A DNA stretch of 64,000 nt, from contig CM039000.1 of NCBI GenBank assembly GCA_017499595.2, forward strand, positions 2,108,001-2,172,000, in the 5' to 3' direction. Positions 29,108 to 61,129 of this stretch are shown here, piece after piece (positions within the stretch are counted from its first letter, which is position 1; every line of letters starts with the position of its first letter). The DNA is from Psilocybe cubensis (Eukaryota). The notes below the pieces were generated by a model, which worked only from the letters and a program-made list of their open reading frames with translations, was not told where the DNA came from and did no database searches. The position numbers were made by a program, and so were the translations under genes.

Positions 29108-32100
29108 GTCGAGGGAAAACTGGGGGAGAATGGCTGGGAGGGAGGGGCAGGGGCAGCCTGGGCAGCAGGAGGAGTGCAGAGTGCAGAGAAGATTGGGAGA
29201 GAAAGGATAGATGTACAGAGACAGATAAGTTAAGTTATATTCGGAAGTAGAGGGAGGGGCAAGGCATAACGAGCAGACAATGGAGAGAGGAGTGAAGATA
29301 AAGAAAACTCGCAGATGACTCCCCACTAACCCACGACTGCTGACTAACCTTAAACCCCCTCCCGATCTCACTCTTCCCGATTTGGCATTCTGATCTCCCT
29401 GACAACTCGGCGCGTCCTCAACCCGCGTCACTCCCTCCTGTCTGCGTCCACGCCAGAAACGCGTCCTGCAGTCTCCCCAATCCATCCTTCTCTTTCCATA
29501 TCTGGATGTCTCCGGCACATCTGCCATTGTTCTCACTCTTACCCATGCTGTCTAACCCTCTATCGCCTGAAGAATCCACTTACAAGATCCGTCTTCACCA
29601 ATACTCTTCACGCCACCCAACAAGGGTTCACCCAACATGCATAACTAGTCCTACGCCGAATCACCGCTGCTCCTACTTGCTCTACCTGCCGCGCGGTGAT
29701 TATGCCGCCCCGCCTTTCACCGTCGTGCCGATAGCTTCCTTGTCCTGCACTTTTGCTAGTTTACAGCACTACACGACGTTCTGCCACACCACTGTCTTGC
29801 GTTTGCGCTATCTCTGGCCGCCTTACTATCCATTTGTCTAATAAACCAGGGTTCGCCTCGCTTATAGCCAGCGCCTCCTGATTTATACCATATCCGTCCA
29901 AATTGCTCTGTTCATTTTTTTGCAGCTCTACGAGCGATTCTCGTTTCATTCTAGAAATCAGTTCCATTCCGACATGAATGTATGATCACTCTTCACTTAA
30001 CAATTTTTTACAATTTGCCCGGGATCCCCATGGTCCCCAGTTCCTGGTTTGCGTTACTTGTATGCACGGCGAAGGCGCGTGCGTGTACGTACATCTACAC
30101 GCTTCATCTCGAACGCGACGCGACGCGGCGGGCGGCATCCGACTCCGCCTCACCTTGCCCGCTTACCTGACTCGTGCTCTGTTACTCATCTCTGCATTCC
30201 ATTGCCCGGCTTCATCCTTTTTCCCACCCGCCTAGATCTAGATGGTAGTCATCTACACTCTACAGTACAGGAATCCCTTCTCGACACAGAGACAATCGTG
30301 CATGTATACTTGATTTGGTTACCTCCCGCTCAAAACTGGCAATGGATGGTGCTCTCTCATGACTATCAGTTTCTACCCGGGATATATTCCCGAATGCCAT
30401 ATCACAGGTATAACATAGTCTCACGGACTGCCCAATGGATACGAGGCTATACTTGTCCTTCCCGTGCCGAGTATATTTCTGGTCCTCAATGTAGTCGCAG
30501 ATCCGTCGAGTCATTCCACCAAACTTGGTTCAGGATGCGGGATTCACCTGGAGCGTCTTTCTCCTTGAATAATATCTACCCATGTGAGGGTGTTACACTT
30601 TCCTGCGGTGGGGACTTTTCCAGGTCCCCAAGGAGCATGTAAAAGCTTATGTTGCCCTACGCCCAGGTATCCCACTACCAAACACCTTTTCTAGGCAATA
30701 AGCAGTGCAATAGACAAGCATTCTATATCTGTCAAGGCGGTACCACGGAAAACAATGGGGGGTCTACATGTACGAGATATGTGGGTCGTATGTTAACCTT
30801 AAGGTCGGGTTGGAACCTGTAAAGCCCTCGGAGTCGACCTGTAGTAAATTAGGAAAAACGCAGCCTTTTGACTCGGCGATACAGTGCCCCTTTGCCTATT
30901 ATGTCGTGTGTATTCCCTTTAGATCTTGTCTATGTAAAATGGTGGGCTACTGAGTCAGAATACTGGCGTGAGCTCTATTCTTGGCCCATTCTCACAGAGG
31001 AGGGTGGGATACATCACGCTATTGTTTCTTTGTGAATGAGACCTTACGGATTTATGTGAGTGATATGTGTGATTAGCACACAGTATAAGGTCTACAACCT
31101 ACAGCTAAGACCACCATACCCACTGAGCCAAGTCGACCACATGCATTGCCGACGGTGTGTGGTTACTTTCTAATAATAGACGCGCGCTAATTTATATCTT
31201 GTTATACACGCATCGCGTTTCACTCTTTTATTATGTAGACCGTTACTATGCTCAGAGTTAAGCATGGTTGATATCCTACGAATAGCTGTTAGCACGTATC
31301 ACTGTTTCTGCATTTCGAGTGCTTATCACGCCCAAGCCGGACGTTGGGCATTCAGCGATCAACGCGCTGATAGGTGGTGGCATTGCCAATCAGATCAAGG
31401 CAGCAAATAAGAGACCCACAGTGGAAACACTTTGGTGGTGAGTGAAGCTGAAGCCGATGAAAAGGCGCGGGTTATTTGTGGTTTCCTTGATATATAGTTG
31501 GAACATTTTGCATTTCGTGACTCGGTTTGGACACCATGTTCCCTGCCTCATTTGAAAATCCGGAGGTTTTGTAAAATTTTGATATGACATTCAAATTTTC
31601 CGGCAAGAATTTGGTACACACTACACCCAGGTTGTACTCAAATTCCTGATCTTGCATCGTATTACGTACTTATTTGCCGTGCACAATAGTAAGTTTATCT
31701 ACATACTACTAGAGTGTAGTTTCCTCTACTTCATACTTTCAACTCATGGAATTTATATATTGTTCTTTGAGTTGAGTACCAATAAGACTCAGGGCAATCA
31801 AAGACACAGATTCAATGTGGTTAGGCTGACAGTATGCTTGTAATTTAGAAACAAGAGGTACAAATGCACGTAAAGATGTTTTTTGTTTTGTCTCGAATAT
31901 TCAAGTATTCGTTTTTATTCCCACTGAAGCAAGGGTTTCTTGTACACAAGTAACAAATCTGATGTTTTTGAAAATCAGTTGTTTTATTACAGAATTTGAG
32001 GGTTATAGGGTAGGGTGAACTTTGGGAGAACATTTATTGAACGCAAGTTTCATTAATATATTAGGGAGAGTAATGTAAATATATCGATGTAAAATTTAAA

Positions 32101-32914
32101 TGACGGATAAGAGAGATGGTATGGTACAGTTGTTCAATTACTATTACTCGAAACTGGGCAAGAAAAGGGCTTTGTTAGATATGGGCTTTCGCAAGTGGTT
32201 ATCACCACAGATGCCGCATTGTGATTGATGCATTAAATGCACCAGATGTCAGGGAGAGTGTCTTGCAACGGTATTGCTCAGAAAAATTGATTCCAATTGA
32301 TTTCTCCGTCGAGACACTCCCAAATATTTGGGGCTGAGAGTAACGCACCACGAGCAGAAGTACTTTATACTGTGACACTAGCGTCATAATACACATTTAG
32401 GGTAATTCCACATCCGAGTCTTTCCACATGGTAACGTGTTTAACACTAAATTGAAAAGTTTTCTGAATTTTATGCTATTGCAGTGACTCTAACTCTTCCT
32501 GCCCATAATGTGATGGGGTCATATCCAAGTTTAAAGACGTTTATTCCAAGCCAATCACTGAAGCCAGTTAATTCTTCAATGTCGAGGCTCGATGCACATT
32601 GACATGTATTTTTGCCTAATGCAGTGAGTCTCGCTGCGCCCGCAACAAATCAGCCAACGAAGCAGATCATGGCTTCTTGATATTATCCAATCCCTTTAAA
32701 CCCCAGGGTACGATTGTAAGTCCGGACGCGTATTTGCGTGTTTCGGTGGTAACACGGTCACGTGATTAATTAAACGCGTCAATTATCATGTCAGAAGCTT
32801 GATAATGCAAAGTTTTACCGGGAGATTCTCCGAGAAGTCAAAAGTGGAATACAATCAATTGTGAAGGAAGACAATGAGGAAATGCATGGAACATACACTG
32901 CGGGCTCCGATACA

Positions 32915-33296
32915 TGTTTGATGTCAAACATCGTCAATCAAACACATATTATGTAAGAAGACGATGTTTGATGTCAAACATAAGTTGTGTTTGCTGACAA
33001 ACAAGCATCAAACATAAGTTATGTTTGATAGGCATGTGATATCAAACACAACGTATGTTTGACGCCTGTTTGTCAAAGAACACGGGCTTGACAGAAAATC
33101 TGTCAAGTTCGCTGTAAGATAACAAACGTACATTGTGTTTGATAAATAGTGTTTGATTCCAAATATAACTCCTGTTTGATAATTTGTGCATGAAATCATC
33201 CGTATATTCTGTATGTTATCGACCATAAACATCAAACATAAGTTGTGTAAGAAATCAAACATAATATCTGTTTGAAATCAAACAGATTGTCAAACA
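32915..33296. repeat. Subterminal repeat array: 17 exact copies of TGTTTGA/TCAAACA in both orientations, plus variants
   Basis: Counted directly: 8 TGTTTGA and 9 TCAAACA, often paired as palindromes such as TGTTTGATGTCAAACA. Confidence 0.92.
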
Positions 33297-33318
33297 GACA
33301 TCGACACGCTCATCGTGC

Positions 33319-33383
33319 CGCTCAGCGCGCGCCTCCTCGCGCGATCAGCGCGCGCTTGACGCGCGATCGGCGCGCGTTGAGCG
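33319..33383. repeat. GC/CpG-rich imperfect palindrome, 65 bp
   Basis: cgctcagcgcgcgcc...ggcgcgcgttgagcg with inner tcgcgcg/cgcgcga and tca-gcgcgcgc-ttga arms. Confidence 0.85.
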
Positions 33384-33922
33384 ACACGCCCAGCGATTTT
33401 ACGGCTATTTTGGCGTCTCGGTGATAAGCGACACACCTCACCAACGCTACTTAGGCGCTTGTGTATTCAGCGACGAGAACACGCTCTTCATTCAATAACG
33501 CTGTATCAGTGACGCATGTTTATTCAGCGAGAAAAAACGTATTTTCGAGTGAAATATATGTATTTTTGGGGCTCGGGTGTGTCCTACTACCATACACATA
33601 AATTGACAAATGCTACACAGTCAAAGCTGCTTTTCTCCCTTCTTATTTCTAGAACCTGAGTCTCTATTTCACTGTAGTAGCAATGTATATACTCACATCA
33701 ATGTATTTTATTCGTTTGCCATCGTTTGCCATTGCCTTCTATGAATTGATGTCTCTCAGAACAACTTTCTCGCAGTCTCTTATCACTCACCACACTCCCA
33801 CTCACTCACCACACTCACTCACACTCACTCACCACACTCACCACACTCGCTCTCACTCGCTCAAACACATTCATTCATCGTCCTCGCTCATCACGCCCTC
33901 TATCAACATCGATATTCGTACC

Positions 33923-34466
33923 ATGTCCACAATAGTCTCCAACATCTTTTCCACCATCGTTTCCTTCGTCAACGGCATCAAATACGGATTCGCGTCGGGA
34001 TGCGAGATCGTGGAGTGGTTATGCACGTACGGAGGGCCCGCCTTCGGGGCGATAGCTCGCTACATCAACAAAAATAGCGAAGCGCCAGTTGTTCTGCGAA
34101 ATCGTAGCGGTATGCCAGTGAGTATTTGTAGCTTTGAACAGCGTCTTACCGCTCCTTTCAGGAGGAAAGTTGATCAGCGACATGGAGGCTCAACACTCAC
34201 CAGCCAACGACGCCGATTTCGAGGAACTCATCCGCGTTCGCCAGGAGATTAAAACCCTGAAAAAAATTCTCGACAATCGAAGCGCACGTACTCGGCCTGG
34301 TACATCGGAAGCGCACGAAATTCAGCTCGACCGCTTCGAACTTGAGCGCAAGAAAGTTCTCAACGATATCGCGATCGAGGCCCAAATACGTGCCACCTAC
34401 CCTGCGCGAGCCCTGTATCTCGCAATGTGCGAGACATACGATGTCGCTCCTGTCCGCACCGACTAG
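33923..34466 (+). CDS. Small two-exon uncharacterised protein with a coiled-coil C-terminal half
   Basis: MSTIVSNIF...VLRNRS|GGKLISDMEAQ...APVRTD* with a GTATGC...TTTCAG intron. A CACT/CACA-rich leader lies at 33783-33865. Confidence 0.6.
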
Positions 34467-34809
34467 GCGCCCCGGCGGGTTTTTCTTGTTGTTATCTTTT
34501 CTTCATTTTCTTGTTGCTTTCTTGTTGCTTTCTTGTTGCTTTCGGTTTATCGCTATCGCTTCGTATTATTGTACATATATCCCTGAATTTTACCATTTGA
34601 TTCGCTATATTTGTATCATACTCATTGAAGACTCATAATCTCATTTCTGAATAATAAAACTCCTTAACATTCGCGGACATCTGTGGCCTATGTTATTTCA
34701 TGAAGCTTGAAACAACATTTTTTTTATTACCAAACAAGCGTCGTCAGCACCTTTAGAGGCAAATTAACGCGCGTTTGCCGTTTGGATACCTGCTGCACCG
34801 GCACCTGCT

Positions 34810-35163
34810 GACTCAGTCCTGCCCTTGTCCCTGCTGCAGCTGACTCTGACTCTGTACCATGCGTATCGACGAGCTGCGCGACTGCGACGGCGCCGTGTTT
34901 GTCTCGTACCCTTCGCCATCTGTGCGGTCCGCGTCCGTCTGCGGCTTCTGGTAGGTATCCTGCTCCTGCTCGAGATCCTCCTCTGTGAACTCTCCCAGTA
35001 CGGGTTCCGTGTCCAGGAAGGTATCCTATTGAAAAAAAAAAGACTGTCAATGTCAATAAAAACACGCACATAGAGAAAGAAGTAAAAAAAAGAAAAGGAA
35101 AAAAAAAAGAGATAAAACACGCACCATCACCAAAAACAAATTCTTCTTATCATGGAAACTCCA
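34810..35163 (-). pseudogene. Remnant of an AGC-type protein kinase gene with the catalytic core deleted
   Basis: WSFHDKKNLFLVM (kinase subdomain IV-V-like, 35163-35125), then a GTGCGT...AATAG intron, then DTFLDTEPVL... resembling an AGC C-terminal tail. Confidence 0.5.
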
Positions 35164-36220
35164 CTCACAGCGGTCCTAACAGAAATCACACCACGCATGT
35201 CGTCAACACAAGCAACTCAGCAAGAAAGAGACGTCAATCTTACAGATGTTCTCCGGGGGCCACTACAATGCCAAAGAATTGAGCGTCTGCGGATGGGGCG
35301 AGAATGGATGCAGGACAATGGGCTAGCTATGGAACGTTTGGTATCAGTTACGCATGCCAGGAAAGCGAGACGCATCAGGCTCCGATTTCGGGTGTATGCG
35401 GATGCGCAGGACTTCAGGGCATACGCAAACAGCAGAGCGGCGATGACGGGTTCCACACATCGGGCACTGATAGAAACAAACAGCGCCAGATTCAGCGTAG
35501 CCTCCTGGAACTGCAACGGAGGACTCGCGGCATCAATCCATACGCCAATGTATAGGGATCTCGTACTATCTAATGATGTTACCTTCTTCCAGGAAACACA
35601 CATGGCGCCAGGGCAAGAGGATATTCTGGATCTACCTCGCGGTTTTCATCCAGTGGCACGATCGCGACCATGGCGGCACCCCCTAGGCGGCGTCACTGTA
35701 ATTATACGGGACACTGTAAAATATAGAATATGCGACGAGATCATGCACCCAGATATACTGGTCCTTGAGCTCCCATCCCTAATCCTAATCTGCTCGTATC
35801 TTGTGCCAGAGAACTCCAGATGGGAATCTTGGACGCATGTGGACCCTAAGACATGGCTGGGGGAGGCTATCGAATATTTGTGTCTTGCGATCCAAGGCAT
35901 ACATGATTATAGGCGACCTGAACGCGCGTATAGGCCTGCAACAAGCAGCGGGATCGCACTTAGTACGAGTGTCTCCAGATAATACCTGCATTGCTAGAGG
36001 GAATCGCCTACTGGAAATCATGGGGCAGAATTCTCTGCATGTCGTGAATGGGACACCAATCGACCGAACGCCGTTCCCACAGTGGACCTCCAGTCAGGCC
36101 AACGGAGGCCGCTCTGTCATTGACTACATCATCGTCTCGGAAGACGCGCTCCTGTCGTTGGAAGCCATGGATGGGTTGGAGGAAGAGTGGATGACCATGC
36201 AGGGATACATGTGGAGATGA
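35164..36220 (+). mobile_element. Non-LTR retrotransposon (LINE) 5' fragment with a frameshifted APE endonuclease domain
   Basis: VASWNCNGG, DVTFFQETHM, GGVTVII, ICSYLVP, then after a frameshift near 35880 IIGDLNARIG, RGNRLL, VVNGT, RSVIDYIIVS. Confidence 0.88.
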
Positions 36221-37054
36221 GATCTTCTCTCACTCTTGGGCTGATCGTCTCAATAACGCCGCTCACGCGTTCATAAACCGCGAACACGATCGCCTGCCCG
36301 GGTGCCACGCGCAGCACGCGGGGGTGATGCCCTTGTAGAATGACCGCACGCCCTCCATCTTCCACATATCTGCCGCGATCGCGAATATGCGCTGGAAGGA
36401 GGATTGGCCTGGAGTTGCTTTGGCTTTTTGTAGACCTGATATAATTGATTTGAGTAAGAGAGGCTAAGAAAGTGTAGTTAAAAAGGGACGTACGAGTTTT
36501 GATAGTGTCTATTGGTGCATTTGAGAACGGACCCATAGCTCCAGAGATAAGACCAATCATCATGTGTTGGTAGGATGGTAGCTCGACCAAGTCTGGCTGG
36601 TACTTATGCGCGAGCTTCTTGATTTCTTGGTACGCGGTGAAGTTGGCACCTAAGGTGGACACACAAGCCTTAAGAAAGGCGTTCTTCGGCTATTCACGAA
36701 TGAAGACGTACCCTGATTCGTAGCTTGTCTCAGTGGCGTCAAAGAGACACCACGATACAATGTCGAGATTCCTTCCTCACGAATGATGGTGTACACAGCA
36801 TGACCAGCATTACGGTACCGAGGCGCTTCAAGAGGATCGGCCAATGAATGTTGTTGAGCTTGCAGAGGAATCTTCACCACTTCCATGGGCGTCACGATGG
36901 CAACAGCTTCCGTCACTCCAGCCCCAAGACCGGCTATACGCAAGTAATTAAAAGATGACATCAGCTCAACACCTTCGCGGCAAGAGAAAAGAATTACATA
37001 CCAATGAAGATATTCCCAATACTCGTCTTCCCTGTTTGCTTATCGGCAAGCCGA
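36218..37054 (-). pseudogene. SFC1: Captured 5'-truncated mitochondrial succinate/fumarate carrier (SFC1-like) with introns retained
   Basis: GLGAGVTEAVAIVTPMEVVKI, ADPLEAPRYRNA, LYRGVSLT.LRQATNQG, GPFSNAPIDTIKTR, RVAPGQAIVF. It lacks the N-terminal third, has R>P and A>P changes in conserved motifs, and has a 1-nt deletion in GITPRV near 36322. Confidence 0.85.
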
Positions 37055-37339
37055 CGATGGTACATCTCCTCTCAACTTTTTAATAACCCTTGCAGTATGT
37101 TTTTCTCTGTCTATTATTTGGCAATACAATTAACACACGATAGACTTCGACGATGCCAGCGGGAACATCTGTGTCTATATCCTCCCCAAGTGGGATGATC
37201 AATCTTGACAAGGTACGGGGAATTCAGGCTCCAAGAAATGCTGAGGAAACGACACGACCCAGACATCGAGGAATGGTATGCCATTGACTACGAAAGTCTT
37301 GCAAATTACCCGCCTTAACTCAAGCATAGGTTTGGACGT

Positions 37340-37850
37340 CTTCGGCTGAAGGGCCCATGGGCTCATCCTATGCAGCGAGGTTGCACTGGTGGAACGCGCG
37401 CACCTGGTCAAGGGCATGCACCGACGACAGTGTGCAGAACTCCACGGTTGTGGAAGACCACAAAGTCATCTTCGCGCCAGTCGTGTGGATACACCAGCTG
37501 CTCCAAAATTCAGCTTCGAACAAAAAAGCGCAGACAATATGCGAACTTACAGAAGGAGCGATCGCAGGTCATTGCTACGACTCCTGGAACAGGTGCAGAT
37601 CAAGTGTCTGCGACGAATACTGGGTTTGGGTCCGAGGTCGATAACGGCAGTTCTTTATTCTGAAACAGGAGTACTTCCCATTAAATATAGGCGGTTAATC
37701 CTAGTACTACGTTACGACATCCCTCCCCGGAGAGCGATAGTTAGGATGGTTGAGAGACCTAGTCCGGGCACTGGATCTACTTCCCTGCCCGGCGCAAGTA
37801 ACAGCAAGAGAACTGTGGGAATCGGAGGGCACTGCGAAGGTGATCAACGC
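37340..37850 (+). mobile_element. LINE 3' fragment (region C-terminal to RT), degenerate
   Basis: LLEQVQIKCLRRILGLGPRSITAVLYSETGVLPIKYRRLILVLRY and WLRDLVRALDLLP resemble the post-RT region of fungal LINEs. No RT core is present. Confidence 0.7.
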
Positions 37851-38399
37851 ATCTACGCCCGCTCCTCCCGATCCGATCCCGATCCTCCCGCTCCAGCATC
37901 CGCAACCGCAACAGCATCCGCATCAGTGTCCGTATACACACTAATCACATTCTCTGCCTACACATATACACATTTCTTAATCAGATAAAATCAAACTCCC
38001 ACAACGAAAGAGAAGTGACGTACCATCTTCATCTTCATCCCCACCTTCCCCTTCATCCGTCGAATTCGAATGCGAAACGGGAAACACCAGAAACAGAGCT
38101 CAAAGCAGGCGATGGCGCTCTCTCCCCTGCACCTCCTTGTTCGGAACCCTCACCCGAACCCTCAACGACCCAACTACGACTCACAGACCCGTTGTCCGAT
38201 ACAAACGACGACGATATCTCCTGCGTGTCGTGCGAGATGGAAATAGACTCTGACTCTGTCCCTGAAAGCGAAAGGTACGGCGAGTGCAAAGAAACAGGCG
38301 AACGGGTACAACGACGCGGAATGCAACGACGCGGCGCGCGGCACGAACACGGGTGCGGGCGGCGAGAGTGTGAACGGTGCGGGCGCTGGTGTGGGTGAT

Positions 38400-39500
38400 G
38401 GTGAGCAGGTGCGTGAAGCGTTTGATGAGGCTGGGGCTGAGCCTGAGCCTGTTGTGGAGGCGTTTGACGAGGCTGGGGCGGAGGTGGAGTGGAAGGGTAC
38501 GGTGCAAGTGGGTACACACTCCTCTTATTCGCCGGTGCTTGTGCTGGTGTATTCCCATTCCCAATCCCCAACACCTGCTGCTCCCTATTCCCTTTACCCA
38601 CCCGCGACCGTGCCTGCAACTCCCGCTTCACCGCATCCACATCCATCGCGCGCAGCACCTGCTCCGAGAGCGTCGGGAGCAGCGCGAGGAGGATGTTGCG
38701 ATGTCTTCGTGTGTTTGGGTGAATTGAGTGCGGAGGCTTGTAGGTTGTAGTAAGTTAAATAAGTGTAGGGGAAGGGAGGGAAAAGAGGAAAAGGGGTGTT
38801 AGTTGTGTTTAGAAAATTAGAGATAAGAATGGGAATAGAATAGGATAAAAAAGAATGGGATACAATAAAAGCAAAGAAAATAAAAGTAAAAGCAAAAGCC
38901 CATCCGACGGTTCTTCTATCCATCCTGCTATCCGTCCTGAACCATCTATCCACCCGTATCAATCAACCCGTACATGCATGCATCGGCCAAAACGATCTAT
39001 GCGAAGATGAAGACGAAGGCGAAGGATACACCCTCGAACAAACAACAACATGAACAAGAACCAGAACCGTGCTCGTTCAAAGTACCTCTGCAAGATGGAT
39101 GGAATAGAGAACCTCCGAAACTGGAATCTGTCCATTCCACCGAAATCTATCCAAATAAACCCACAAAAAAAACAATCCAAAAAACATACTCTCTAAAAAC
39201 CACACTCCAAAAACAAAAAACCCCAAAAACCAGAAAAGAAAGAAAGAAAGAAATAAAAAAATAAAATAAAAAAACACTCACACATCCCTCGCCTGTTCCT
39301 CGGCGTCCATCTTCTGCCTCACCTCATCAAGCCGCACGCGCATGAACCCGCGCGCGTCCTATAGGCCGCCGATGATGGTGGTCGTTTTGAGTGCATTATT
39401 CAACTTTGCCAGATGTTGCTGACGTTGCGAGCTAACATTCTCCACCTCCATTTCATCCTCTTCGATAATACCGCCGGCCACACGACCATGAGCGTCCTCG
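38400..39500 (-). pseudogene. Captured fragment of an unidentified host gene with introns, a stop and a frameshift
   Basis: GGL*DARGFMRVRLDEVRQKMDAEEQARD|T-rich intron(s)|LRTQFTQTHEDI/RNILLALLPTLSEQVLRAMDVDAVKRELQARSRV. Confidence 0.45.
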
Positions 39501-39549
39501 CCTTCCGGGTGATCAATAGTCCTCTTTCTCTCTGTCTGTCGAGATGACC

Positions 39550-40292
39550 CCATCCCTATCAAGCGCGTCAGTGGACAACGCAGTCGACGCTAGATTCGTC
39601 ATGGACGGCGCGGCAGACCACCCATTCACATCCCCTCCAATACTCCCACTAACACTCCAACTAAGCGTCATCGCACCAAACGAGCCAAACGGATCCGGGC
39701 CCTACTTGGCAGGAGCCATCACAAGCGGTGTATTCCCCCCTTTCTTCCCGATCCCAATGCCCATACTCATCCCCATCCCCTTGCCACCCCCAGGCGACGC
39801 CAGCCGCGAAAGCGTGTTCAAAAACGTCGACTTTCGTTTCTTCTCCTTCCCCTTCTTCTGCTGCGCGAGGGGCAGACCGGCGGGGTCGATGGGCAGCGAT
39901 GGGATTTTGAGGCCCGGGTGCGTACTGCGCAGTTTCACGTCGAGTTCGATGAGCTCCGCGGCGGTGCGTATGAGCGTGAGGTTGTGTGTGGGTGCTGGTG
40001 TGTGCAGTGTCGTGTTTGTTATCACAGGTGATGGTGGTCGGTGCATGGGAGTAGGTGCGCGGCGGCCGTGGTGGTGGTGGTAGAGATAGAAAGATCGGCG
40101 CGGGTGGTGGTGGTGGTGGTGGTGGTGGTGGTGGTGGTGGTGGTGGTGGTGGTGAGAGTCGACGAGCGGGGGTTGGATTCGACGATGTCGGCAGCGTGGA
40201 TAGCGACGCGGACGATGCAGCGGATGAAGACGACGACGATGACGTCGGTGTGGGCGGGACGAAGTGAATGGTTAAAGTAGACGCAGACATCA
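39550..40292 (-). pseudogene. Captured N-terminal fragment of a host gene, possibly the PX-like N-terminus of the same AGC kinase
   Basis: HRPPSP...LTLIRTAAELIELDVKL...IPSLPIDP...KKRKSTFLNTLSRLASP, with broken frames. Family identity is from memory only. Confidence 0.4.
40103..40153. repeat. (GGT)17 microsatellite
   Basis: Seen directly. Confidence 0.95.
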
Positions 40293-40759
40293 TACAGTGG
40301 GGAAAACCAAAAGCGCCACGATGAGATGATGAGATGATGGGAGTGTACAGGTTCGTGTCTAGTGCTTTCATTTCGTCTTGATTTCGTGTTTGGGTTTGGG
40401 TTTATAAGTCGGAATTCGAGTTTGTCTGGTGGGTGTTGTGTAAGATATGCTATGCTATGGTGTGATATGTGGTGTGTAACAGTGTAAGATGTTCAGAGCG
40501 TACTGCAAGTCGGTGTGAGGTAAGATGAGCTGAGGCGCTAGTGTCAGCGTCGGTGTAGGCGTAGGGTGTAACCGTAGAACACAAACTGGGTTGGCAAACC
40601 AAAAGCCAATGTGAAGGTCGATAGTCGATAAACGGTGTTGGTGTAGGTGTAAGTGGGCAGTGGGTATACCACGCCATTCTCCCCGCTTCAGATCGAAAGG
40701 CAAAGTCAAACAAAGAGTCAACAGTCGAATCGAAAACCCGCAAAAAGGGGTTGGTGGTG

Positions 40760-41775
40760 GTGGTAGCACCCCACTGCACAACTTTGCCTGGTCTTCCTCG
40801 TCGTCTTCGTCGTCTTTTTCTTCTTCGAAATGAGGCCGTCGGAGAGGATGTGGACGTCGATGTCTACGCCCGTTTCCATGCCCATGTCCCTCATTGTCGA
40901 CTTCATCGTCTTCATGGAAATCGTCCTCATCATCCTCTGTATCGTCCGATTCGCTGGGACTTACTAACCCAGGCTCGTCCCCGTCCTGCGCCACTGTAAC
41001 ATGTTGGTTGAATTTTTTCTTCCTCGCTTGCTCTAATTCAAATTGTACATCCTCCTGGTCCGTTTCTCCCTGGTTTTCATCGCGTACCGTATGATGTGGG
41101 TTGAAGCTTTTGGCATTCATCTTTTTCTTCCTATCCCTAAGAGCGGCTATTTGGGCGTCTGCTCGCCATCTGTTGGGGTCCACGGCGATGTTTGTGTCCA
41201 GATTCTGACGCATTGCCTCCATACGTAGAGCCTCGATCTGACGCTCATTGAAAGCGGCGCGTTCCCTCCACGCTCAAGGTTCAGGCTGGCAGGGTCGAGC
41301 GGCGCAAAATGGCGGACGAGCCTGGGTTGATGTTGCAGTTGTGGTTGCGGTGGAGGCGCGTGAACGGGGGGCAGATCGGGGAGCTCTTCCTCTTCGAATA
41401 CGCCCAGGCGAGCATTCTGCGACATCCATTCACGGAGGAGGAAGACGGCAACGAAGATGAGTACAATGAGCGATGCGATGATCAGGCCGGTGAATATGTC
41501 TGCCGAGGGCGCTAACCATGCCGGATGTGAAGAAACCTTGGAGAAAAAATGCTGTTGGATGGCGGCCCAGGGGCTTCGTAGCGAATTCTATCGATAGAGG
41601 AAGCTATCAGAAGTGGATATTAGATTGAGATCCCGGATGAGTACGTACGCGGATTCTCCCATGGAAAAGACGTCCACACTGTTATGCATGGCAATATTCC
41701 TAGCCAGATTGTAGCAACAGCTATAATACGAACAACAGGGAGAAAAATAATTGTTGTAAAAGCCGCCGAATTACC
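40760..41775 (-). pseudogene. DOA10: Captured internal fragment of the ERAD E3 ligase Doa10/SSM4 (MARCH6-like)
   Basis: IRRLLQQLFFSLLFVL*/VATIWLGILPCITVWT/FSMGES...SADIFTGLIIASLIVLIFVAVFLLREWMSQNARLGVFEEEE. No RING-CH domain, several frameshifts. Confidence 0.75.
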
Positions 41776-41855
41776 CGTCTAACGTCACTGTCCGCAGTCC
41801 CTAAGCCTAAGTCGTAAGTAAGAGGGAAAGGATACAAAAAATACCCTCGAAAAAT

Positions 41856-42058
41856 CTCGCATGCCCGAGGCATGGTGTTCATGGTATCATCTGGAATACA
41901 ACTTCCAGATCGCAGTTTGATGTAAGCCAATTGGACAGGAATGCTGCTTAAGCCGTCCGTTCGAGTAGTATTTGGCCAGATCACTGAGGAGACCATACGC
42001 CAACCTCACTAGAGAATCAGAGCGTTCCTCGTCGAAGGCAGCGGTGAACAAGCTCCAA
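41856..42058 (-). pseudogene. KAP95: Captured C-terminal fragment of importin beta-1 (Kap95)
   Basis: Across frameshifts it reads LELVHRCL/DEERSDSLVRLAYGLLSDLAKYYSNGRLKQ/AFLSNWLTS/LRSGSCIPDDTMNTMPRACE, matching the last HEAT repeats (GLLGDLA...TMRWARE). Confidence 0.7.
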
Positions 42059-42260
42059 CTTAAGTAGTCGAGCACGCCAAAGATGTCGCTGAGCGTCCTA
42101 GTGAACTGCGTCGTGATGGGCACGACTTTTGCCTGGCGAGGTGACGCACATGGACGACAATGCTCTCGTCTTTTCTGTGCCGCTCCGCCGCGAAACGGAG
42201 GTGAAACAGTTGTAGAAGTAGCCTAAGTGAAGTGGCAGCCAACCAGAGATGTCAGTAGGA

Positions 42261-43536
42261 ATCGTTAGTGTTCGGGATAGGAGATGGGCTATACTATGTA
42301 AGTTACTACAGAAAATTAGGTAGACAGAACGAAACATACCTGTGTAGAACAAGAGGAAGGAAATGGTGAAACGAACGACTTGAGTGAGAATCGTGTGCGT
42401 CTAATCGCATGGTTAGCAAACGGCGGGTACACTGGAGTTGCGACTTACCAGACATGCTTCGAAACTTTTGCGATGTCTTGTTCGCTGACCTGTATCTGCG
42501 CTGAATGACTGACCCAATATACAACACTGTGCAGAAAATTGTGTTACTTACGGCGAGCGTAGAGATCTCATACGTGCTTAACATCTGTGTTGGCACTTCG
42601 ATTACACCTCACGCACAATATCATTCGGTCCCCATTTCGCTCCCTGTAGTAGTATTTGTATTATTTACATGGTACACTACGCTAGACTGCCTACATGGAT
42701 AGCAGCGCTACTCGGTCTATATGTGCTACTTCACCCGCTAGATGAGCATGGTTGGAACAGAAGAAGAAGAAAGCGTGAGAATATGGCCAGCACGCCAACA
42801 AGTACCGCAGAAGTTCGATGCCGCTCATGCCGTCGCCAAATTGGTGATGCGCGTGATTGGTGGCACGGCATCAGCGGCATCAAACTTCTGTCCTGTATCA
42901 TGGCGATTTTGTGACGGTGTGACGCCTTTCCACCTCTCTCTCAACACTCACTCCTATGAAGCACGTCGTACGTAGAGATGGTTCGCATACGAGCTTACTG
43001 TAGTAGTAGCACTTTAGTGTAGACTCTAATACCATAAACTTAGCTAGCTGCGTACTCTAGTAATACAATTTTAGTTCAAGTGACATAGACCCGGCTTGGA
43101 AGGGCAGAGGAAATAGTCGGGTGAGCGACACAGAACGAGGAGGAACTACAATTCATTTGGATAGTGAATTACGCAGAAACATAGGTGCGAATCGTATTTT
43201 TATTACTATCAGGCAGGAAACACAAGCCAAGAACACCTTCTACAGCACACCCGCCGCCTCTTCGCCTGCCAGACCCGTATTCGAGCGTCACAAACATAGG
43301 TGAGGAATCATCTTTGCTATCAGTGCAGGAAACATATTCTACAGCACATGTGCCGCCTCATTGCTTTACAGACCTCACTTATTCAACGACGCACCCACCT
43401 ACATTCAAGAATTGAACGTTGAATGCTGCCATAACTTTATGTTTTGTACGACGCTGCCTACTGTAAGCACCCGATCTGCGAGGTACCCTCTTTGCAGGTT
43501 GCCGTTTTAATTTGGATTTCACGATATCGGGACTTG
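42261..43536 (-). repeat. Module R copy 1, left arm of the 1276-bp near-identical inverted repeat
   Basis: Reverse complement of 59814-61089 (coordinates sum to 103350, mirrored ORFs are identical). I spotted only two mismatches, at ~42267 and ~43474. Weaker similarity continues to ~43586. Confidence 0.97.
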
Positions 43537-44169
43537 TGTAGGATGTGCACATGGCTTCCGTCGACTCTCCTGCTAATGCAACTATATGCAAGTCTATTCT
43601 CATCTGACACGAGTAACGTAAATATCTCATTTACCCCCCCCCCCCCCCCCGTTGCTCTATTGAACCCCACAATTGGGATGACAGCCAGCGCTTTCACATG
43701 TTATTTACAACATCCTGATTTAATCAGGGGCTGCTAGAATTTTCGCTCATTCCGCACCTCGACTCGAGCCATATTTTTGAGAAGTAAGTTCAACCTTACA
43801 CGCGTGTAGGCAACGCTCGTGTCCTTTCTGCCTCCGTACTAGTCTCTTGTTTGGTAAAGACCAATTTTTCCATTGCTCCTCTTGCGTGTTATCATTCTGT
43901 CCTCGTTTCATAGGGACTACATCTAGTATGTAGACTACATGTTCGACGCCGCTCATGCCGTCGCTTGATTGGTGATTGCGCCAGCATCACATGTCGCCCA
44001 ATTATCTTATCTTATCGCTGTCAGAATAGACAAAACAGCAAGAGATCCCTTAAGACTGCCGGCGCAGCGCGATGGCAGGCGCAGAGCGAGACCTGTACTC
44101 GGATAATCCAAGGTGGCTTTACAATACGGATTGGTTTAACGGGCAGCCTATGATCAGATCAGAGTGGTG

Positions 44170-45570
44170 AAAGTGTCAAAATGAGTGAAGGCGTTAACAG
44201 CCGTGATTCATACGAGTTCTGAGAACACACCCCCGAGATTGTGTGGTTCAGCAAAGAAACAAAAAGATGATTGAGATATCTGGATATGAAGAGCTGTTTG
44301 AATTGCACCAATGCTAACGGAAGGCCACAACATATGTGCTTGTGGGACTCGATGAGAGCCATGAGCAATTCACATAAGATAAACACAGTCCGGCTCGATA
44401 TGGTGCAATCCAATTAAAACAGCACCTGCAAAGGGGGTACCTCCTAGACAGAATGCTTATCGTAAGAAGCATCGCAGAAAAAAATATGGCAGCGTTCTGT
44501 GAGTGTGGCGTCGTTTATTAAGTGACGTCTGTCAGGCGACGAGGCGGCGCATATAGAATATGTTTTCCATACTAGTGATAGCAAGATGATTCTCACCTAT
44601 GTTTCTGTGTAATTATGTGACCTCGAATGAAGGACTGGTGGGAGAAGAGGCGGCGCGTATGCTAGAACATGTTTTTGGTTTATCTTCTCTGTACTGATAG
44701 CAAAAGATGATTCTCACCTATGCTTTTGCATAATTCACCAGCACATGAATTGTCATGTTCACCGGTCTTTGAATTAAAGTTATTATGGTGTTAAAATCTA
44801 CGTTAAAGTATCCCTACCGCTAAGCTAAATATTTGAATCGAATTTACATTCGACCCGCCGCATTGGAGAGTGGGGGTTGTCAGAGAGGAAGAAAGGCGTC
44901 ACACCGTCACAAAATCGCCCTGATACAGCACAGAAGTTCGATGCCGCTCAAGCCGTCGCAACATTGGTGATGTGCGTGATTGGTGGCACGGCATGAGCGG
45001 CATCGAACTTCTGCGGTACATGTTGGAGAGCTGGACATATTCCCACGGTTTTCCCTTCTTTCCTGCGCACCATCCTGGCCACGACGTTCGGCGGGGCTGG
45101 TGAACCTGAACCTGTCAAAGCAGCACGTTGAGATTGAGTAGCGTAGCAATTTATGTACATGGACTAGCGTAGTGTGCAATGTATATAGTACTAGATCAGA
45201 GGAAATATTCTGCTACGAGATGAGGACGGTGACGCGTCAGAGGCATGGGGATCATATAGACTCTACCACCCGGTGCGATGTCTAGCGTACGCCCTGGTTT
45301 TGTAGGAGGTATGATGCTGCACATTTGGTCAGTTATCCACACAGATCCACCTTTAGTGAACAGAACATCTCTTGGTTGGTGAGTCGCAACTCCAGTCTAC
45401 CCTTCAATAGCAAAGCACACTGACTGCTTGCGGACCGTCCCGACCGTCCCAAGGAAAATTACAGACTGCTTGCTGAGCGTCCCTGGAAAAACTACACTCA
45501 CTTATTTCTTACCGAAGGTGCTCGTTGCACCGTCTGCTTCGTCTTGCTTCACTTAGGTATATTCGGTACA
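44170..45570 (+). repeat. Module R copy 2, diverged; inverted relative to copy 1 and direct relative to copy 3
   Basis: Collinear blocks shared with copy 3: acctgcaaag.gggtacctc, gatagcaa.gatgatt.ctcacctatg (twice), aaaggcgtcacaccgtcacaaaatcgcc, the 83-nt hairpin and gt.agtcgcaactccagt. Confidence 0.85.
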
Positions 45571-45767
45571 CTCTACATGCAATTTCTTACAACTATAAAC
45601 TTAGATTGAGTGCGTCGCAGCAAAGGAGGCCACAGGGCAGCTCTTAGCACCCACAAGACAGCTCACCTCCTTCCTTATGTTTTTACTCCAAGGTAAGCGT
45701 TCATCTCATAGCCGTTTATTAGCTGAAATTTATTGTTTCCGTAACAGTACTGCCTAATCCCTACTGT

Positions 45768-46647
45768 CTATTCTGCATCATTGACTCCTGCGATGTTGGC
45801 AAGGGCAGCTCGAACCCGAGCGCTTTCCCTCCTCCCCTCGACACGACGATGTGCCTCCGCCCTATATTTCAGCTTCAACTTCAACACGCTATGAACTGGC
45901 CAACATTTATCGTAATCCCTGAGAACCGGCCAACGCCTAGTTGCCTACCACGTGTGTCAGCCTTGCTTTTGAGTAGTAAAACAAACTGGTAATTACCTCT
46001 TGACATATTGCTTCAATTTTTTCCTTTTTCTGAGATCTGTAGCTTTTACTCATATCCAGCGACCTCCTTGCTTCTCGGGTGATGTATCCCTACGGACAAA
46101 ATCAAGGCATCAGTCAAGTATGGTGAGCCACTATTGATTTACATACCACCATATCTCCTATATCTTCCTCAGACCAGTGGAAGTCGTCCCTCAGGACTGT
46201 CTGGATATTAAACCCACCACTTCCCCGACGGCCAGGTTCTCCCTTTGGCTTCTTATACATTTCGCCTCCTGGGACCGGCGAAGTCACGCGAGGATGAGAA
46301 GGCCCCGCCACTTGGAGGATCATAGCGGGATCAATGGGTTGCCCAGGATCGACCTGCACATGAGTTGCTGGTGTTGCAATTGAAGGCCCGATTGGAGGGA
46401 CAGGTACGGTGTCCTGGCCTGAAGGTCCCTCTGCCTGTATGAGCTCTTCAGGCCCTGGAGCTGCGACGGATGATGGCTGTGGCGCGGCTCCACGCGGAAT
46501 GGCGTGTCGCTGTAGCAGCTCTGGAGTCCATTGGATACGAGGGGTAATCTTAGGTAGAGGTTCTTGACTGGGTAAGAGGAATTCGATCCGGGGAGTGATG
46601 AGGGGGAGATGACGAATGTATTCGTGTGAAGGATGCGAGGATGACAT
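45768..46647 (-). CDS. Uncharacterised protein, 3 exons, with a KPKGEPGR.GSGGFN / CWPV motif family
   Basis: MSSSHPSHEY...KKPKGEPGRRGSGGFNIQ...W...|GYITREARRSLDMSKSYRSQ...AICQE|ATRRWPVLRDYDKCWPVHSVLKLKLKY...* splices in frame. I recall this motif from repetitive agaric hypothetical proteins. Confidence 0.75.
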
Positions 46648-47231
46648 GGTATATGTCGAGGAAAGATTGTGCGTTTTTCTTTTCATTCACTATTTGTAGT
46701 TTCGTATTCGTCGCTCAATCATCCCCTTTGTTTATTCTATGTAACGTCTCGCTCTTCCGCAGACACTCATCCTCAGTGTGCACGTCAAATCTCAGTGCAC
46801 GTCAAATACGCACCAATTGTTTCGCAAAGTCGCTCTGCTAGTGTCAAAGATTGTTTGATCGATATCTTCTCACCGTAGGGGTAACCATTGATCGCTACCT
46901 ATCATTCTTTCATCAATATCTATTTCAGGGAGGGCTCAAGAAAGCATCATTTGTCTCTACAATGAGTGAAAACCCCAATGACAATATTATCAGACATTGA
47001 GCCTTAGTTATACAAAATGAGCCTTAGTTCCAATATGAATACGGTTTGGCAAAAACGTGACAAAAAGGCGACACGACTCAAAGGGAGATGTTATCTTTGA
47101 CGAGTTATCTGTGACTCGTCAATGGCCAGTGCCAAGGGTGTCACAATGACTTCCGGCGGCGCTGGCGGTAAAGTACTTAAAGAGCAGGAGTTATCACCAG
47201 TCGTAAACGATTCAAACCATCAGCACCCGCC

Positions 47232-49061
47232 ATGGCAAGTGTAAGCTTTGCATCCTGTAGTTGTCGCCCGCTGACATGTTCGATAGGAGAATTTCGCAAT
47301 ATTCAGAACATATAAGTTGCCATCCATTCTGCCTATCAACACTTTATTGTTCTCAGAGGACGCTAGACTCTTAATATCTGGCGGTGAGTCTTTTCCTATC
47401 GTCAGTGTTAGGTAATCTTTAATAAGAACAATATCATACTTAGGAGATGACGAGACGGTATATGTCTTGGACACAAAAACGGGGGAATGCATTCAAACTC
47501 TTGAGGATGACAACTGGGGACAAATCACCACAGTTGTCTGGGGACAACAGGAGTTACCCAACAGAGAAAACGGCGTTGTGTTATGCATTGGCACGGGGAG
47601 AGGGTGTTTGGCGTTGGTTGCGCTAGACTATGATGCCACCGAAGTACTTCTCTTTCTCGTTTCAACTTCCTGTGTCCTTACATTCTGTATATCATTCCTT
47701 AGCCATTCCCAGTAGGCGCGAACACATCTCCTGTATTTGCGTTCAATGACTCTGTCGAGAAAATGGCTTTCGACAAGCTCAACAATCGATTAGCCGTCAC
47801 AAGTCACTCCGGTGAGATCAAGGTTTTTGCAGTAAACAACAGTAAGTACTCTTGTCAATCGCCCTAGCACTCAAACCACACGAATATGGTACTCCTAGCT
47901 TCCTTGAGGTTATTGTGGGCCGATAATATTGGCAAAGTGATCACCAGCGGCCTATTCTTTTTTGGGGGGTCGAATCAAAGCCTCTTGACCATCGGGTTGG
48001 AGACATCGGAAATGTGCGTTGATGTTTCTGTTTCCTTGCAATATATTCACGAATTTCTACCACAGGAAGTGCCTCGATGCTTCAAAGAGAGGTCCGCCAT
48101 TATGGACGAAACATTTGATTGGTGGGATGTACGTGCTACTTTATGGAAACCCTCCATTATTTTGATAAATTTTTGAATATTTGACAGTGGAAGCGCGTCT
48201 CTGTCCAGCGATGAAACGTTGCTTCTTGTAGACAACCTTGCTACCGGTAACTTCGACGTCTATCAGATCGCCGACAACTCCCCTCTTCGTTCCCTGCCAA
48301 TAGGCTCGACCCGTCGATTTTCCAAGCAATGCGCCTTCTTTGAAGGTTCGAAAATAGCAGTTTGCGGCAGTGACACCAATAAAGTTTTCATTGTGGATGT
48401 CGCAAACAACTATGTTGTTCAGACACTGACAACATGTCGAGGTTCGACTTTTCGCTTACCCCCGCATTTCAGTTTATTAATTTGTGGACTTAGGTACTTA
48501 CATGACACAAACGGTCTGTGTTACTCCATCGTCATCGCGCAACGTCTTTGTCGCCGCCGCATGTCGTGGCTATGTATATATCTGGGAAAAATCAACTCCT
48601 CAAGTCCAGGTAAATGTTCGCGCAGATGACCCTCCCCCTTCGAGGTACCGTCGCGTTGGATCCGCTATTTTGCCTTACCTGGGATTTGCTGTCGCTGGTA
48701 CTGTCGGCCATTGGTTACCACACGCCTGGAAGGTGAGCAGCTTACAATCCTTTTGGCATTTGACAAACTAATGATATTCAAGTTGGGCCAAGACATAATC
48801 ATGAAGACTGCTGATTATCTCATCCAGAATGGCGCAGATAGGACGATGGAACTTCCAAGAGAAGCTGTTGACAAAATCTTCGAGATGGCGGCAGCGGCCT
48901 CGAGGGCTTTGGATATGTCGTCGGCACTGGTGTCGTCGAGGACTCTCGACATGGCTGCTATTGCTACAACAACATACACGGCTGCTACTGCGACTGCTAC
49001 GATGACATCCCCTTCTGCTACCTCTCTTTTTGACATGGCAGCAGCAGCGGCTGGCCATTAG
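47232..49061 (+). CDS. WD40-repeat protein with a C-terminal hydrophobic segment, multi-exon
   Basis: INTLLFSEDARLLISGGDDETVYVLDTKTGECIQTL, DSVEKMAFD...LAVTSHSGEIKVF, IAVCGSDTNKVFIVDV, GYVYIWEK, all joined by GT-AG introns. Confidence 0.8.
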
Positions 49062-49209
49062 AATCTGCATCTGCGTATCCTTCTAATTTGAAACGTGCCC
49101 TAGATTTCTTTTGTACATTTATGATATCGGATAATGACATTTTGCTGAGTAACCTGACTACATGCATCGAAGCTATGATCTACACAGTTTTCCATTATGT
49201 TCTCAGTGG

Positions 49210-61089: not shown

Positions 61090-61129
61090 CCGCACTATGC
61101 GCTATTAAGCAAACAAGATCCCGGACTTG

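Follow-up and report, generated by a model that had tools for sequence, protein, structure and literature searches.

How did pieces of at least nine ordinary, unrelated host genes come to lie side by side in Psilocybe cubensis? They form a patchwork between 34.9 and 42.1 kb of the window (the whole 64-kb stretch of DNA that was analysed), in which the pieces are truncated and frameshifted. Most documented cases of cut-and-paste transposons that capture and shuffle gene fragments come from plants. A first, sequence-only reading of this locus described a Pack-type mosaic of co-oriented fragments of importin-beta, DOA10, an AGC kinase (two pieces), an unknown gene and SFC1, captured as DNA. These broken pieces are all present, close to where that reading had placed them and on the minus strand. 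The analysis presented here makes it likely that the mosaic rides as passenger DNA within an internal, dispensable part of a CACTA/EnSpm-like element, where it was captured and then multiplied.

The piece assigned to importin-beta (41944–42096, minus strand) would derive from near the C-terminus of the protein. It matches the Pfam profile TPR_IMB1 at positions 338–373 of 388 (E 5.1e-5, under the curated cut-off) and residues 798–832 of 882 of PDB 4xri/4xrk (E 0.052); both matches are sub-threshold and weak, but they point to one family and to one region of it, which tentatively suggests the assignment. An exon of the public gene model P0001 (42096–42004) covers the piece, which is internal to its gene and joins a mid-gene piece of DOA10. 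The latter (40797–41774, minus strand) was delimited by tblastn with its P. cubensis parent, P0003, as 5 aligned blocks that fall in three reading frames and are interrupted by in-frame stops. It corresponds to residues 10–282 and 657–716 of the 1702-residue parent model, with 82/95 identical residues in the best block and 66–86% protein identity, and it has at least three frameshifts, stops and no RING-CH. The intact DOA10 gene (P0003, 1702 aa) lies on a contig of 3,522,523 bases, and the model of the present locus, P0001, on a contig of 4,186,456 bases.

The "unknown gene" of the earlier reading (38380–38691, minus strand) is peroxin-3: the piece matches the Pfam profile Peroxin-3 at positions 63–142 of 458 (E 4.9e-7, 29.7 bits for a cut-off of 27.6), and no PDB sequence matches it. 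Intact parents had been expected elsewhere in the genome. DOA10 has one on another contig, and parental alleles of SFC1 are seen in the genomic reads, but a search for the peroxin-3 parent did not find it.

The two separate protein-kinase pieces of the earlier reading were both recovered through Pkinase relatives (phmmer, Pfam and tblastn). The first (39723–40016, minus strand) corresponds, according to phmmer and Pfam, to the N-terminal, PX-like part of a large protein that combines PX and kinase domains: it has 49 phmmer relatives, of which 15 were scanned with Pfam, 12 of these having Pkinase and 2 also PX, and the region common to the relatives maps to 40097–39672 (tblastn). The second (34880–35163, minus strand, tblastn) is the start of the kinase domain, followed by an apparent intron and a degenerate exon. 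Its segment 35163–35116 is matched in tblastn by 7 of 50 kinase relatives over 14–16 residues at 87–93% identity, and it probably extends to the left of 35116; a 146-nt RNA contig aligns to 34880–35025 with 13 differences. The short kinase motif presumably has an NDR/Rim15-like look, and no Pkinase_C match is listed among the kinase relatives scanned with Pfam. Fragments of four other genes sit between the two kinase pieces.

The SFC1 (succinate/fumarate carrier) fragment occupies 36223–37052 on the minus strand and spans approximately residues 100–314 of 319 (tblastn of P0178). Three of its ORFs match Mito_carr, and named succinate/fumarate carriers are found among its 1032 matches. It retains three introns (36436–36493, 36650–36711 and 36934–37001), which have GT..AG ends on the minus strand. 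A 2144-nt RNA contig matches the exons at 577/591 bases (97.6%, 14 differences) with the three introns exactly removed, as the claim of intron retention predicts, and continues into sequence that is absent from the window. One base, at 36319, is present in this parental RNA contig and missing from the piece, and is likewise absent in 341 of 356 genomic reads, which shows that the lesions are real. At the sites that distinguish SFC1 from its copy, the letter of the RNA is found in 3–11% of genomic reads, as expected from one parent beside about ten copies.

Three shorter pieces follow SFC1 one after the other and come from genes that are expressed. Gene A (37052–37214, plus strand) has its own 49-nt intron (37095–37143): a 2390-nt RNA contig matches 37144–37214 and 43 nt to the left of 37094, skipping a plus-strand GT..AG intron. 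Gene B (37210–37309) is matched by an 1899-nt RNA contig with 2 differences in 100 nt; it has no Pfam match, and its sole long open frame argues for the plus strand. Gene C, which like A and B was not on the earlier list, is a TauD/TfdA-type dioxygenase (37306–37509, minus strand): a 3337-nt RNA contig matches 37306–37497, and the Pfam profile TauD matches 37509–37411 at positions 227–253 of 267 (27.4 bits, E 3.9e-6). Each of these pieces, 71–192 nt in length, is taken from mid-transcript, and the transcripts (1899–3337 nt) are all different.

The introns kept in SFC1 (three) and in gene A (one) indicate that the template was DNA and not mature mRNA, which upholds the proposed DNA-level capture. 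A processed retrocopy or a retroelement transduction was also considered, and rejected on account of the same introns and of the lack of poly(A) at the block edges. Microhomology had been suggested as a property to inspect at the junctions; the SFC1/A, A/B and B/C junctions have overlaps of 1, 5 and 4 bases, respectively.

Besides the short pieces of genes A and B, the plus strand carries part of a non-LTR retroelement, a frameshifted endonuclease (EEP) fragment (35116–36217), also missing from the earlier list. It matches Exo_endo_phos (E 7.1e-5, profile positions 1–86) and Exo_endo_phos_2 (E 2.8e-5) in ORFs of different frames, both below the cut-off. A plus-strand ORF at 37350–37985 resembles, by eye, the tail of a non-LTR ORF, a likeness that searches did not confirm. 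The statement that all the pieces are co-oriented fails when plus-strand pieces are added: counting every piece, the minus strand holds six of the eight independent host genes (two-sided binomial p ~0.29), so that their orientation does not go beyond chance.

The mosaic lies in a larger element whose left terminus (32896–33300, plus strand) was recognised from its sequence, from the reads that run off it and from read depth. It starts with CACTG, and the termini of the CACTA/EnSpm superfamily are described as 5'-CAC(TA/TG)...GTG-3' in the part of PMC12730594 that deals with them. Motifs of the ATGTTTGA type occur in both orientations at 32914–33285, and the 18-nt palindromic form of this subterminal motif has 5 matches for 0.2 expected, so that the end carries the short subterminal repeat array of CACTA/EnSpm elements. 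At 32895/32896, 753 genomic reads (156+597) run off into varied sequence (agreement 0.45/0.41) and the depth rises from ~30 to ~445. The varied outside flanks prove that this is an end of the element.

The mosaic starts 1.9 kb to the right of this terminus, and a predicted transposase gene of the Tnp2 type (50607–53055, minus strand) lies further inside: the ORF 50607–52340 matches Transposase_21 in Pfam (E 1.2e-8, 34.9 bits for a cut-off of 28.6), and the upstream ORF 52252–53055 was assigned to the same putative gene by eye. The module R1 (42254–43536), found by repeat search, is the 1283-nt left arm of a perfect internal inverted repeat whose partner, at 59814–61096, is 100% complementary; reads cover it about twice as deeply as the mosaic. 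Outside the partner arm, 206 reads show one and the same flank (agreement 0.99), and the sequences that flank both arms, including the mosaic/R1 boundary, are constant among reads (agreement 0.99). The arms are therefore internal and are not the ends of the element. No second terminus brackets the mosaic in the window, and a search of these 64 kb for the 18-nt terminus in inverted form, with up to 3 mismatches allowed, found none. The carrier is most likely a young, giant (>31 kb), multi-copy CACTA/EnSpm-like element that runs from 32896 to beyond the window, so that its right end and the 3-bp target-site duplication typical of the superfamily would lie outside it; that it is a single element is suggested by depth and constant junctions rather than by two matched ends.

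The summed read depth is 28–38 in the flank (29601–32268) and 241–369 across 33603–42273, which places the mosaic at ~8–11x the single-copy flank. Public gene models tell of the same recurrence. The 90% cluster of P0001 brings together models under five locus tags, whose contigs measure 4.19, 4.15, 3.13 and 4.68 Mb, and a model of the kinase piece adjoins the P0001-type model at four of these five loci. A second annotation has six entries for the DOA10-piece model, each at most 1 residue in 373 from P0245, and near-identical chimeric models are found at no fewer than six numbered loci on several contigs. The depth and the same pair of neighbouring models at four loci imply that the mosaic was relocated and amplified as a unit, and, with the varied left flanks, they bear out the placing of the mosaic in a CACTA-type carrier. 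The copies are not all alike: the depth at 43608–49600 is ~5x that of the flank, compared to ~10x over the mosaic, which shows that copies differ in structure, and some of those that bear the mosaic may be deletion derivatives.

A scenario can be proposed on this basis. DNA copies of the host-gene pieces, complete with their introns, and of the retroelement fragment would have entered the element, most likely during the repair of a break, either the gap left by excision or a break of another origin, in which the machinery would have switched templates or joined ends at 1–5 bases of microhomology; this mechanism is suggested by the sequence of three junctions. Capture would have occurred in at least two episodes, the older layer consisting of importin-beta, DOA10, the PX-kinase and peroxin-3, and the younger one of SFC1 and genes A, B and C (TauD), which differ from their parents by ~2–4% in nucleotide sequence. 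The two layers, and probably their order, are deduced from this 2–4% distance of the younger pieces to RNA contigs, from the 66–86% protein identity of DOA10, and from 13 reads in which 35374 is joined to 38145, which implies that the younger block (35375–38144) is missing from one copy or more. The finished mosaic would then have been multiplied by transposition to about ten copies. Microhomology, target duplication and poly(A) were all looked for at 35374/38145 and not found, and this joint could be a later deletion rather than the ancestral state. Being truncated and frameshifted, the pieces probably encode nothing; their visible effect is that annotation pipelines call chimeric ORFs as genes.

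The best surviving alternative, although improbable, is the one inferred in the earlier reading: the mosaic would have a functional by-product, either one chimeric RNA or small RNAs with an effect on the parent genes. Model P0001 is indeed predicted from R1 through importin-beta and DOA10 (exons 42584–42552, 42508–42140, 42096–42004 and 41710–41150), model P0258, at another locus, joins the DOA10 and kinase pieces, and ten near-identical copies that are 2–4% away from essential genes would be a plausible source of small RNAs. However, the chimeric gene models were predicted by computer, and none of the reading frames is intact.

A further possibility, to which we give rather little credence, is that the mosaic is the cargo of a distinct, non-autonomous Pack-CACTA with two ends of its own, which either lies within or next to the autonomous element or exists as short derivatives moved in trans. 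Gene-fragment mosaics are a hallmark of Pack-TYPE elements (PMC6379663, in its general description). The excess of the mosaic and the left end over the interior 43608–49600 (about twofold, ~10x and ~5x the flank) also means that about half of the copies may be internally deleted, and possibly transposase-less, with the mosaic kept. Against this, the window contains no inverted 18-nt terminus, the mosaic/R1 boundary does not vary among reads and the window copy is contiguous with the Transposase_21 ORF.

It is very unlikely that the younger block was instead mediated by RNA, a non-LTR reverse transcriptase having switched templates onto SFC1 and the short pieces before insertion into the transposon. 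The SFC1-A-B-TauD patchwork directly follows the endonuclease fragment 35116–36217, an ORF to the right of the patchwork has, by eye, the look of a retroelement tail, and a minority copy lacks exactly 35375–38144; yet a mature mRNA template is incompatible with the four introns kept, neither poly(A) nor target duplication marks 35374/38145, and no search supports the supposed tail. That the pieces are the remains of duplicated neighbouring genes is hardly credible: most of the larger ones share a strand and DOA10 is the only parent with a fixed genomic position, but 71–192 nt pieces of three transcripts abut in mixed orientation with 1–5 base overlaps, an internal importin-beta piece joins a mid-gene DOA10 piece, four other genes' fragments split the kinase pieces, and the block, present in about ten copies, lies behind a transposon terminus on several contigs.

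The preferred reading, capture by a CACTA/EnSpm-like element, is Pack-type in manner, but the window copy is not a strict Pack element. In the sense of Catoni et al., a Pack-TYPE element is non-autonomous by definition (as worded in PMC6379663 and PMC8903248). The fragments do come from host genes located elsewhere (DOA10 on another contig; SFC1, A, B and TauD on separate RNA contigs), but the repeated unit includes the Transposase_21 ORF (50607–52340) with constant internal junctions. The Pack-type claim thus stands as to gene-fragment capture on a CACTA-like carrier and is not upheld, for this copy, as to the lack of a transposase.

Like the Arabidopsis Pack-CACTA/Pack-TYPE elements, as outlined in PMC6379663 and PMC8903248, the mosaic consists of merged host-gene fragments copied as DNA to many sites by a CACTA-family carrier; those elements are short and non-autonomous, whereas the P. 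cubensis mosaic measures 7 kb in a >31-kb unit with transposase and helper genes. It also differs from plant Pack-CACTA in its basidiomycete host and in the retroelement fragment that it contains. Pack-MULEs of rice and other plants similarly enclose and amplify gene fragments in a cut-and-paste transposon and form chimeric ORFs (Jiang et al. 2004, cited in PMC6431247), but belong to the Mutator superfamily, usually measure 1–2 kb and are non-autonomous in the account of PMC6431247. Helitrons of Pleurotus ostreatus and other fungi share a mushroom-forming host and the multiplication of host fragments by a DNA transposon (Castanera et al. 2014, cited in PMC6431247), but, as the latter source sketches them, capture by rolling-circle read-through and have no terminal CACTG or Tnp2. 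The fungal EnSpm, Plavaka and KDZ elements that carry TET/JBP are Agaricomycete CMC-type transposons with 5'-CAC..GTG-3' ends and host-derived sequence; their cargo, in the relevant part of PMC12730594, is an intact, whole and presumably useful TET/JBP gene, unlike the broken fragments found here. The carrier finally resembles an oversized CACTA element with extra ORFs (2013 study), for which the lines of PMC6431247 that cite it mention no host-fragment mosaic. In the literature searched, Helitron and whole-gene cargo are described in fungi and CACTA-type fragment mosaics are not.

The P. cubensis mosaic is thus a new fungal case of a known type of event, Pack-like fragment capture. A bolder view, for now an unlikely one, is that the interior of the element is a still-growing capture bay in an element that still transposes, with repeated uptake of host DNA (an older layer diverged by 14% or more in protein, a younger one by 2–4% in DNA), and that about half of the copies are transposase-less, true Pack-CACTAs, the first in fungi. 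In this view the element, whose pieces of DOA10, SFC1, importin-beta and peroxin-3 exist in ten near-identical and antisense-capable copies, would also be a source of small RNAs or chimeric transcripts that reach these essential genes.

The locus offers a clean fungal example, with identifiable parents, exact intron-retaining copies, base-resolved junctions and two layers of differing age, and the youth of the carrier (copies at most 1 residue in 373 apart) makes it fit for studying how capture happens. Public P. cubensis annotations list at least six numbered "hypothetical protein" genes that are chimeric artefacts of the mosaic (three more are named). Variant calling and estimates of expression for DOA10, SFC1 and the other parents are likewise open to contamination by reads that stem from the ten copies.

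The stretch carries ordinary genes from 1 to ~28 kb (SPRY, PhoD-like, PAP2, glycoside hydrolase 63, SNZ and class-V aminotransferase), and proteins encoded by it are 98–99% identical to Psilocybe cubensis entries. At about 34.9–42.1 kb, broken host-gene pieces form a mosaic inside a giant CACTA/EnSpm-like element. The importin-beta, DOA10, kinase (two pieces) and SFC1 fragments proposed by the sequence-only reading were all recovered, using Pfam, tblastn, phmmer and RNA contigs. The pieces that it named do lie on the minus strand, its unknown gene being peroxin-3, and so does an additional TauD piece, but a retroelement endonuclease and a host-gene piece called gene A are on the plus strand.

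In a Pfam scan of 34.8–42.3 kb, 8 of the 115 stop-to-stop ORFs of at least 45 residues gave a match. Three minus-strand ORFs (36132–37039) match Mito_carr, and another (38056–38754, minus) matches Peroxin-3 above the curated cut-off; the importin-beta C-terminal repeat domain (41890–42222, minus) and a non-LTR retroelement endonuclease domain, in two plus-strand ORFs in two frames (35116–36217), are below cut-off. The importin-beta piece also weakly matches residues 798–832 of the 882 of a solved importin-beta, and a 33-residue minus-strand ORF (37509–37411) matches the TauD family with 27.4 bits. A New_glue match at 40025–40492 was dismissed as a low-complexity artefact of a Thr/Pro/His run. 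The peroxin-3 ORF has no sequence match in the PDB, and its parent was not found among proteins of 409–2000 residues, which is a weak negative. ORFs 37350–37985 and 33653–34249, both plus, received no family from Pfam or the protein atlas, so that the description of the former as a retroelement tail is only an impression. To the left of the mosaic, and inside the left end, lie two overlapping plus-strand ORFs (199 and 114 residues, 33653–34463), either element core or further cargo; neither has a family that Pfam or the atlas recognises.

The SFC1 piece can be compared with its parent. Genomic reads (X15) and probable RNA contigs (X17), both under the same species label, were aligned to 29601–49600. 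A 2144-nt RNA contig aligns to 36223–36433, 36492–36647 and 36710–36933, then beyond 37002, skipping 58, 62 and 68 bases; after a 2-base alignment shift, the skipped stretches are minus-strand introns (GTACGT..AG, GTACGT..AG and GTATGT..AG). This contig is the mRNA of an intact SFC1, the parent: 14 of its 591 aligned bases differ, it has an additional G at 36319, the exact point where the frame of the window's SFC1 breaks, and for the most part it has no match in the window. The window's SFC1 is a DNA copy, 97.6% identical, intron-bearing, 5'-truncated and frameshifted. The G at 36319 is missing from 341 of 356 genomic reads, and RNA-type letters occur at the other SFC1 sites in 3–11% of them. 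The lesions are thus real, rather than sequencing errors, and a single-copy parent exists beside many copies of the mosaic. The true P. cubensis SFC1 does not appear in the 120 proteins listed from 1032 matches, and P0126, a candidate for the parent, is itself a gene model drawn on the mosaic. At 36170, 7 additional bases are present in 273 of 326 genomic reads and in contigs of two other runs; within the family, the window's copy represents a minority variant.

Next to SFC1, a 450-base run consists of three more genes patched together in mixed orientation, each 2–4% diverged from its own transcript. A 2390-nt RNA contig matches gene A at 37052–37094 and 37144–37214, across a plus-strand GTATGT..AG intron; a 1899-nt contig matches only 37210–37309 (gene B), and a 3337-nt contig only 37306–37497 (the TauD piece). 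Each of these contigs shares just a short internal stretch with the window, and genes A and B have no match in Pfam. The consecutive pieces (SFC1, A, B, TauD) overlap by 1, 5 and 4 bases. Capture at the DNA level, deduced earlier from retained introns, is borne out by the three introns of SFC1 and the one of gene A, all skipped by the RNA contigs.

The ORF at 41150–41587 matched the intact P. cubensis DOA10 on another contig (P0003, 1702 aa), as well as numerous DOA10/MARCH6 proteins of Agaricales. In tblastn with P0003, the fragment extends from 41774 to 40797 in three frames with internal stops, and spans residues 10–282 and 657–716, the best block having 82 of 95 residues identical. It shows 66–86% protein identity to the parent and several frameshifts; ~375 residues (283–656) are missing from the captured copy. 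P0003 itself lacks the RING-variant Pfam domain listed for most orthologues; in this public model, part of the N-terminus may be missing or an intron may have been kept.

The ORF at 39705–40271 has 49 relatives in phmmer. Among the 15 scanned, 12 have a protein-kinase domain, located far downstream of where the match lies, and 2 have PX as well; the piece thus represents the N-terminal region of a large PX-kinase. At a distance of 4.5 kb, another piece, of 14–16 residues (35163–35116), derives from the beginning of the kinase domain and is matched by 7 of 50 relatives; it explains why the sequence-only reading had two kinase pieces and where it placed the left limit of the mosaic.

The carrier element starts with CACTG at 32896; after this comes an array in which ATGTTTGA-type motifs occur in either orientation. 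Summed genomic depth is 28–38 left of 32896 and 445 in the first bin that lies wholly within the element; it is 241–369 across 33603–42273, 654 over R1's outer half and 139–184 at 43608–49600. At 32895/32896, 156 and 597 reads exit the element into mutually discordant sequences (agreement 0.45 and 0.41), the signature of many insertion sites. A second copy of the 18-nt terminus was not found within the 64-kb window, so the element is longer than 31 kb; farther inside lie an ORF with Transposase_21 and one with a KOW motif (56246–57619, minus, 458 residues, E 1.2e-7). At 32955–32976, 109 and 320 genomic reads share the first 60–80 bases of the element, then continue into one other sequence (agreement 0.87–0.93): a second subfamily uses the same terminus, hence the 14-fold depth at the tip versus 10-fold farther in.

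R1, a perfect (100%) 1283-nt inverted repeat (42254–43536 and 59814–61096), is internal, because reads exiting it at 42261 and 43536 share one alternative sequence (agreement 0.99), which is the flank of the other arm. Positions 42254 and 61096 were rejected as element ends: the outer flanks of both are constant among reads, and no target duplication was found. The outer half of R1 has a higher depth than the inner half (654 versus 429), so the arms must be truncated in some copies. Occurrences of a near-perfect palindrome of 83 nt lie in or near the arms (42808–42890, 43941–43976, 44931–45013 and 60460–60542).

The copies are also visible in public annotations. P0001 (JR316_0003488), the gene model at the mosaic, begins inside R1 and splices across the importin-beta and DOA10 pieces; its 90% cluster includes JR316_0005418, 0011931, 0010152 and 0000025, with contigs of 4.15, 3.13 and 4.68 Mb. 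Further copies of the kinase-piece model JR316_0003487 are 0005417, 0011930 and 0010153, each numbered next to a model of the P0001 cluster, and additionally 0005426. In a second annotation, a 373-residue DOA10-piece model has six entries, each at most one residue from P0245, and an SFC1-piece model has three. The chimeric "hypothetical proteins" at 40458–42584 and 39516–40046 (JR316_0003488, JR316_0003487, A0A8H8CH31 and A0A8H8CES8-type entries) are most likely artefacts of annotation that recur with each copy. Short, low-depth contigs of two runs under other organism labels (X10 and X11) match parts of the mosaic and element (34851–48916), with 0–2 differences in most of the pieces listed; a close relative, contamination and transfer are candidate readings.

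Ten X17 contigs match the region, none at 99% identity or above (0/5/5), and 8 fit only in part, as expected of parental transcripts. No transcript of the mosaic itself was therefore seen in this one probable RNA run, whose assembled contigs cannot show absence; an apparent RNA joint (38048–39760) was dismissed, as it rests on 21 low-complexity letters. Decay by repeat-induced point mutation or methylation was rejected: CpG observed/expected is 1.0 in the mosaic versus 0.94 in flanking genes, so there is no depletion. The differences between copies (X15, 29601–49600) are transition-biased (C>T at 45 and G>A at 46 of the 159 places), which contrasts with the CpG value of the window's copy. As far as the evidence goes, the mosaic is a passive passenger.

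The retained introns exclude mature mRNA as template. The tiny internal pieces, the 1–5-base overlaps and the mixed orientation fit a process in which the pieces would have been joined either by microhomology-mediated end joining or by repair synthesis that switched templates. Gap repair is the route commonly proposed for plant Pack-type capture. Catoni et al. propose another route, in which the DNA between neighbouring elements is captured after incomplete excision (PMC6379663). Such a route would be expected to give larger contiguous pieces than the 71–192-nt scraps seen here.

The DOA10 piece is far more diverged than the SFC1/A/B/TauD block, and 13 reads join 35374 straight to 38145, which means that the endonuclease–SFC1–patchwork block is missing from one copy or more. 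Together these point to two layers of capture, DOA10 belonging to an older and SFC1, A, B and TauD to a younger one. The joint, at which microhomology was not found, may also be a secondary deletion. The last capture would have preceded amplification, because the copies are nearly identical.

Functionally, this is the Pack phenomenon, since host fragments were merged and spread by a CACTA-type transposon. Pack-TYPE elements are non-autonomous, however, and the P. cubensis element, at least in the window copy, fails that feature, having a Transposase_21 ORF in the same copy; the depth of the mosaic, about twice that of the interior, hints that deleted derivatives exist. Published passages describe Helitron capture in Pleurotus (PMC6431247) and fungal EnSpm/Plavaka/KDZ elements with whole-gene TET/JBP cargo (PMC12730594). 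Among the matches listed, the Pack-CACTA literature concerns plants or cites plant work. The open-access main texts searched gave no description of a host-fragment mosaic in a fungal CACTA, in agreement with the initial impression that such mosaics are not well described for basidiomycete CACTAs. The mosaic is genuine and well resolved, and exemplifies a known phenomenon in a host group that is new.
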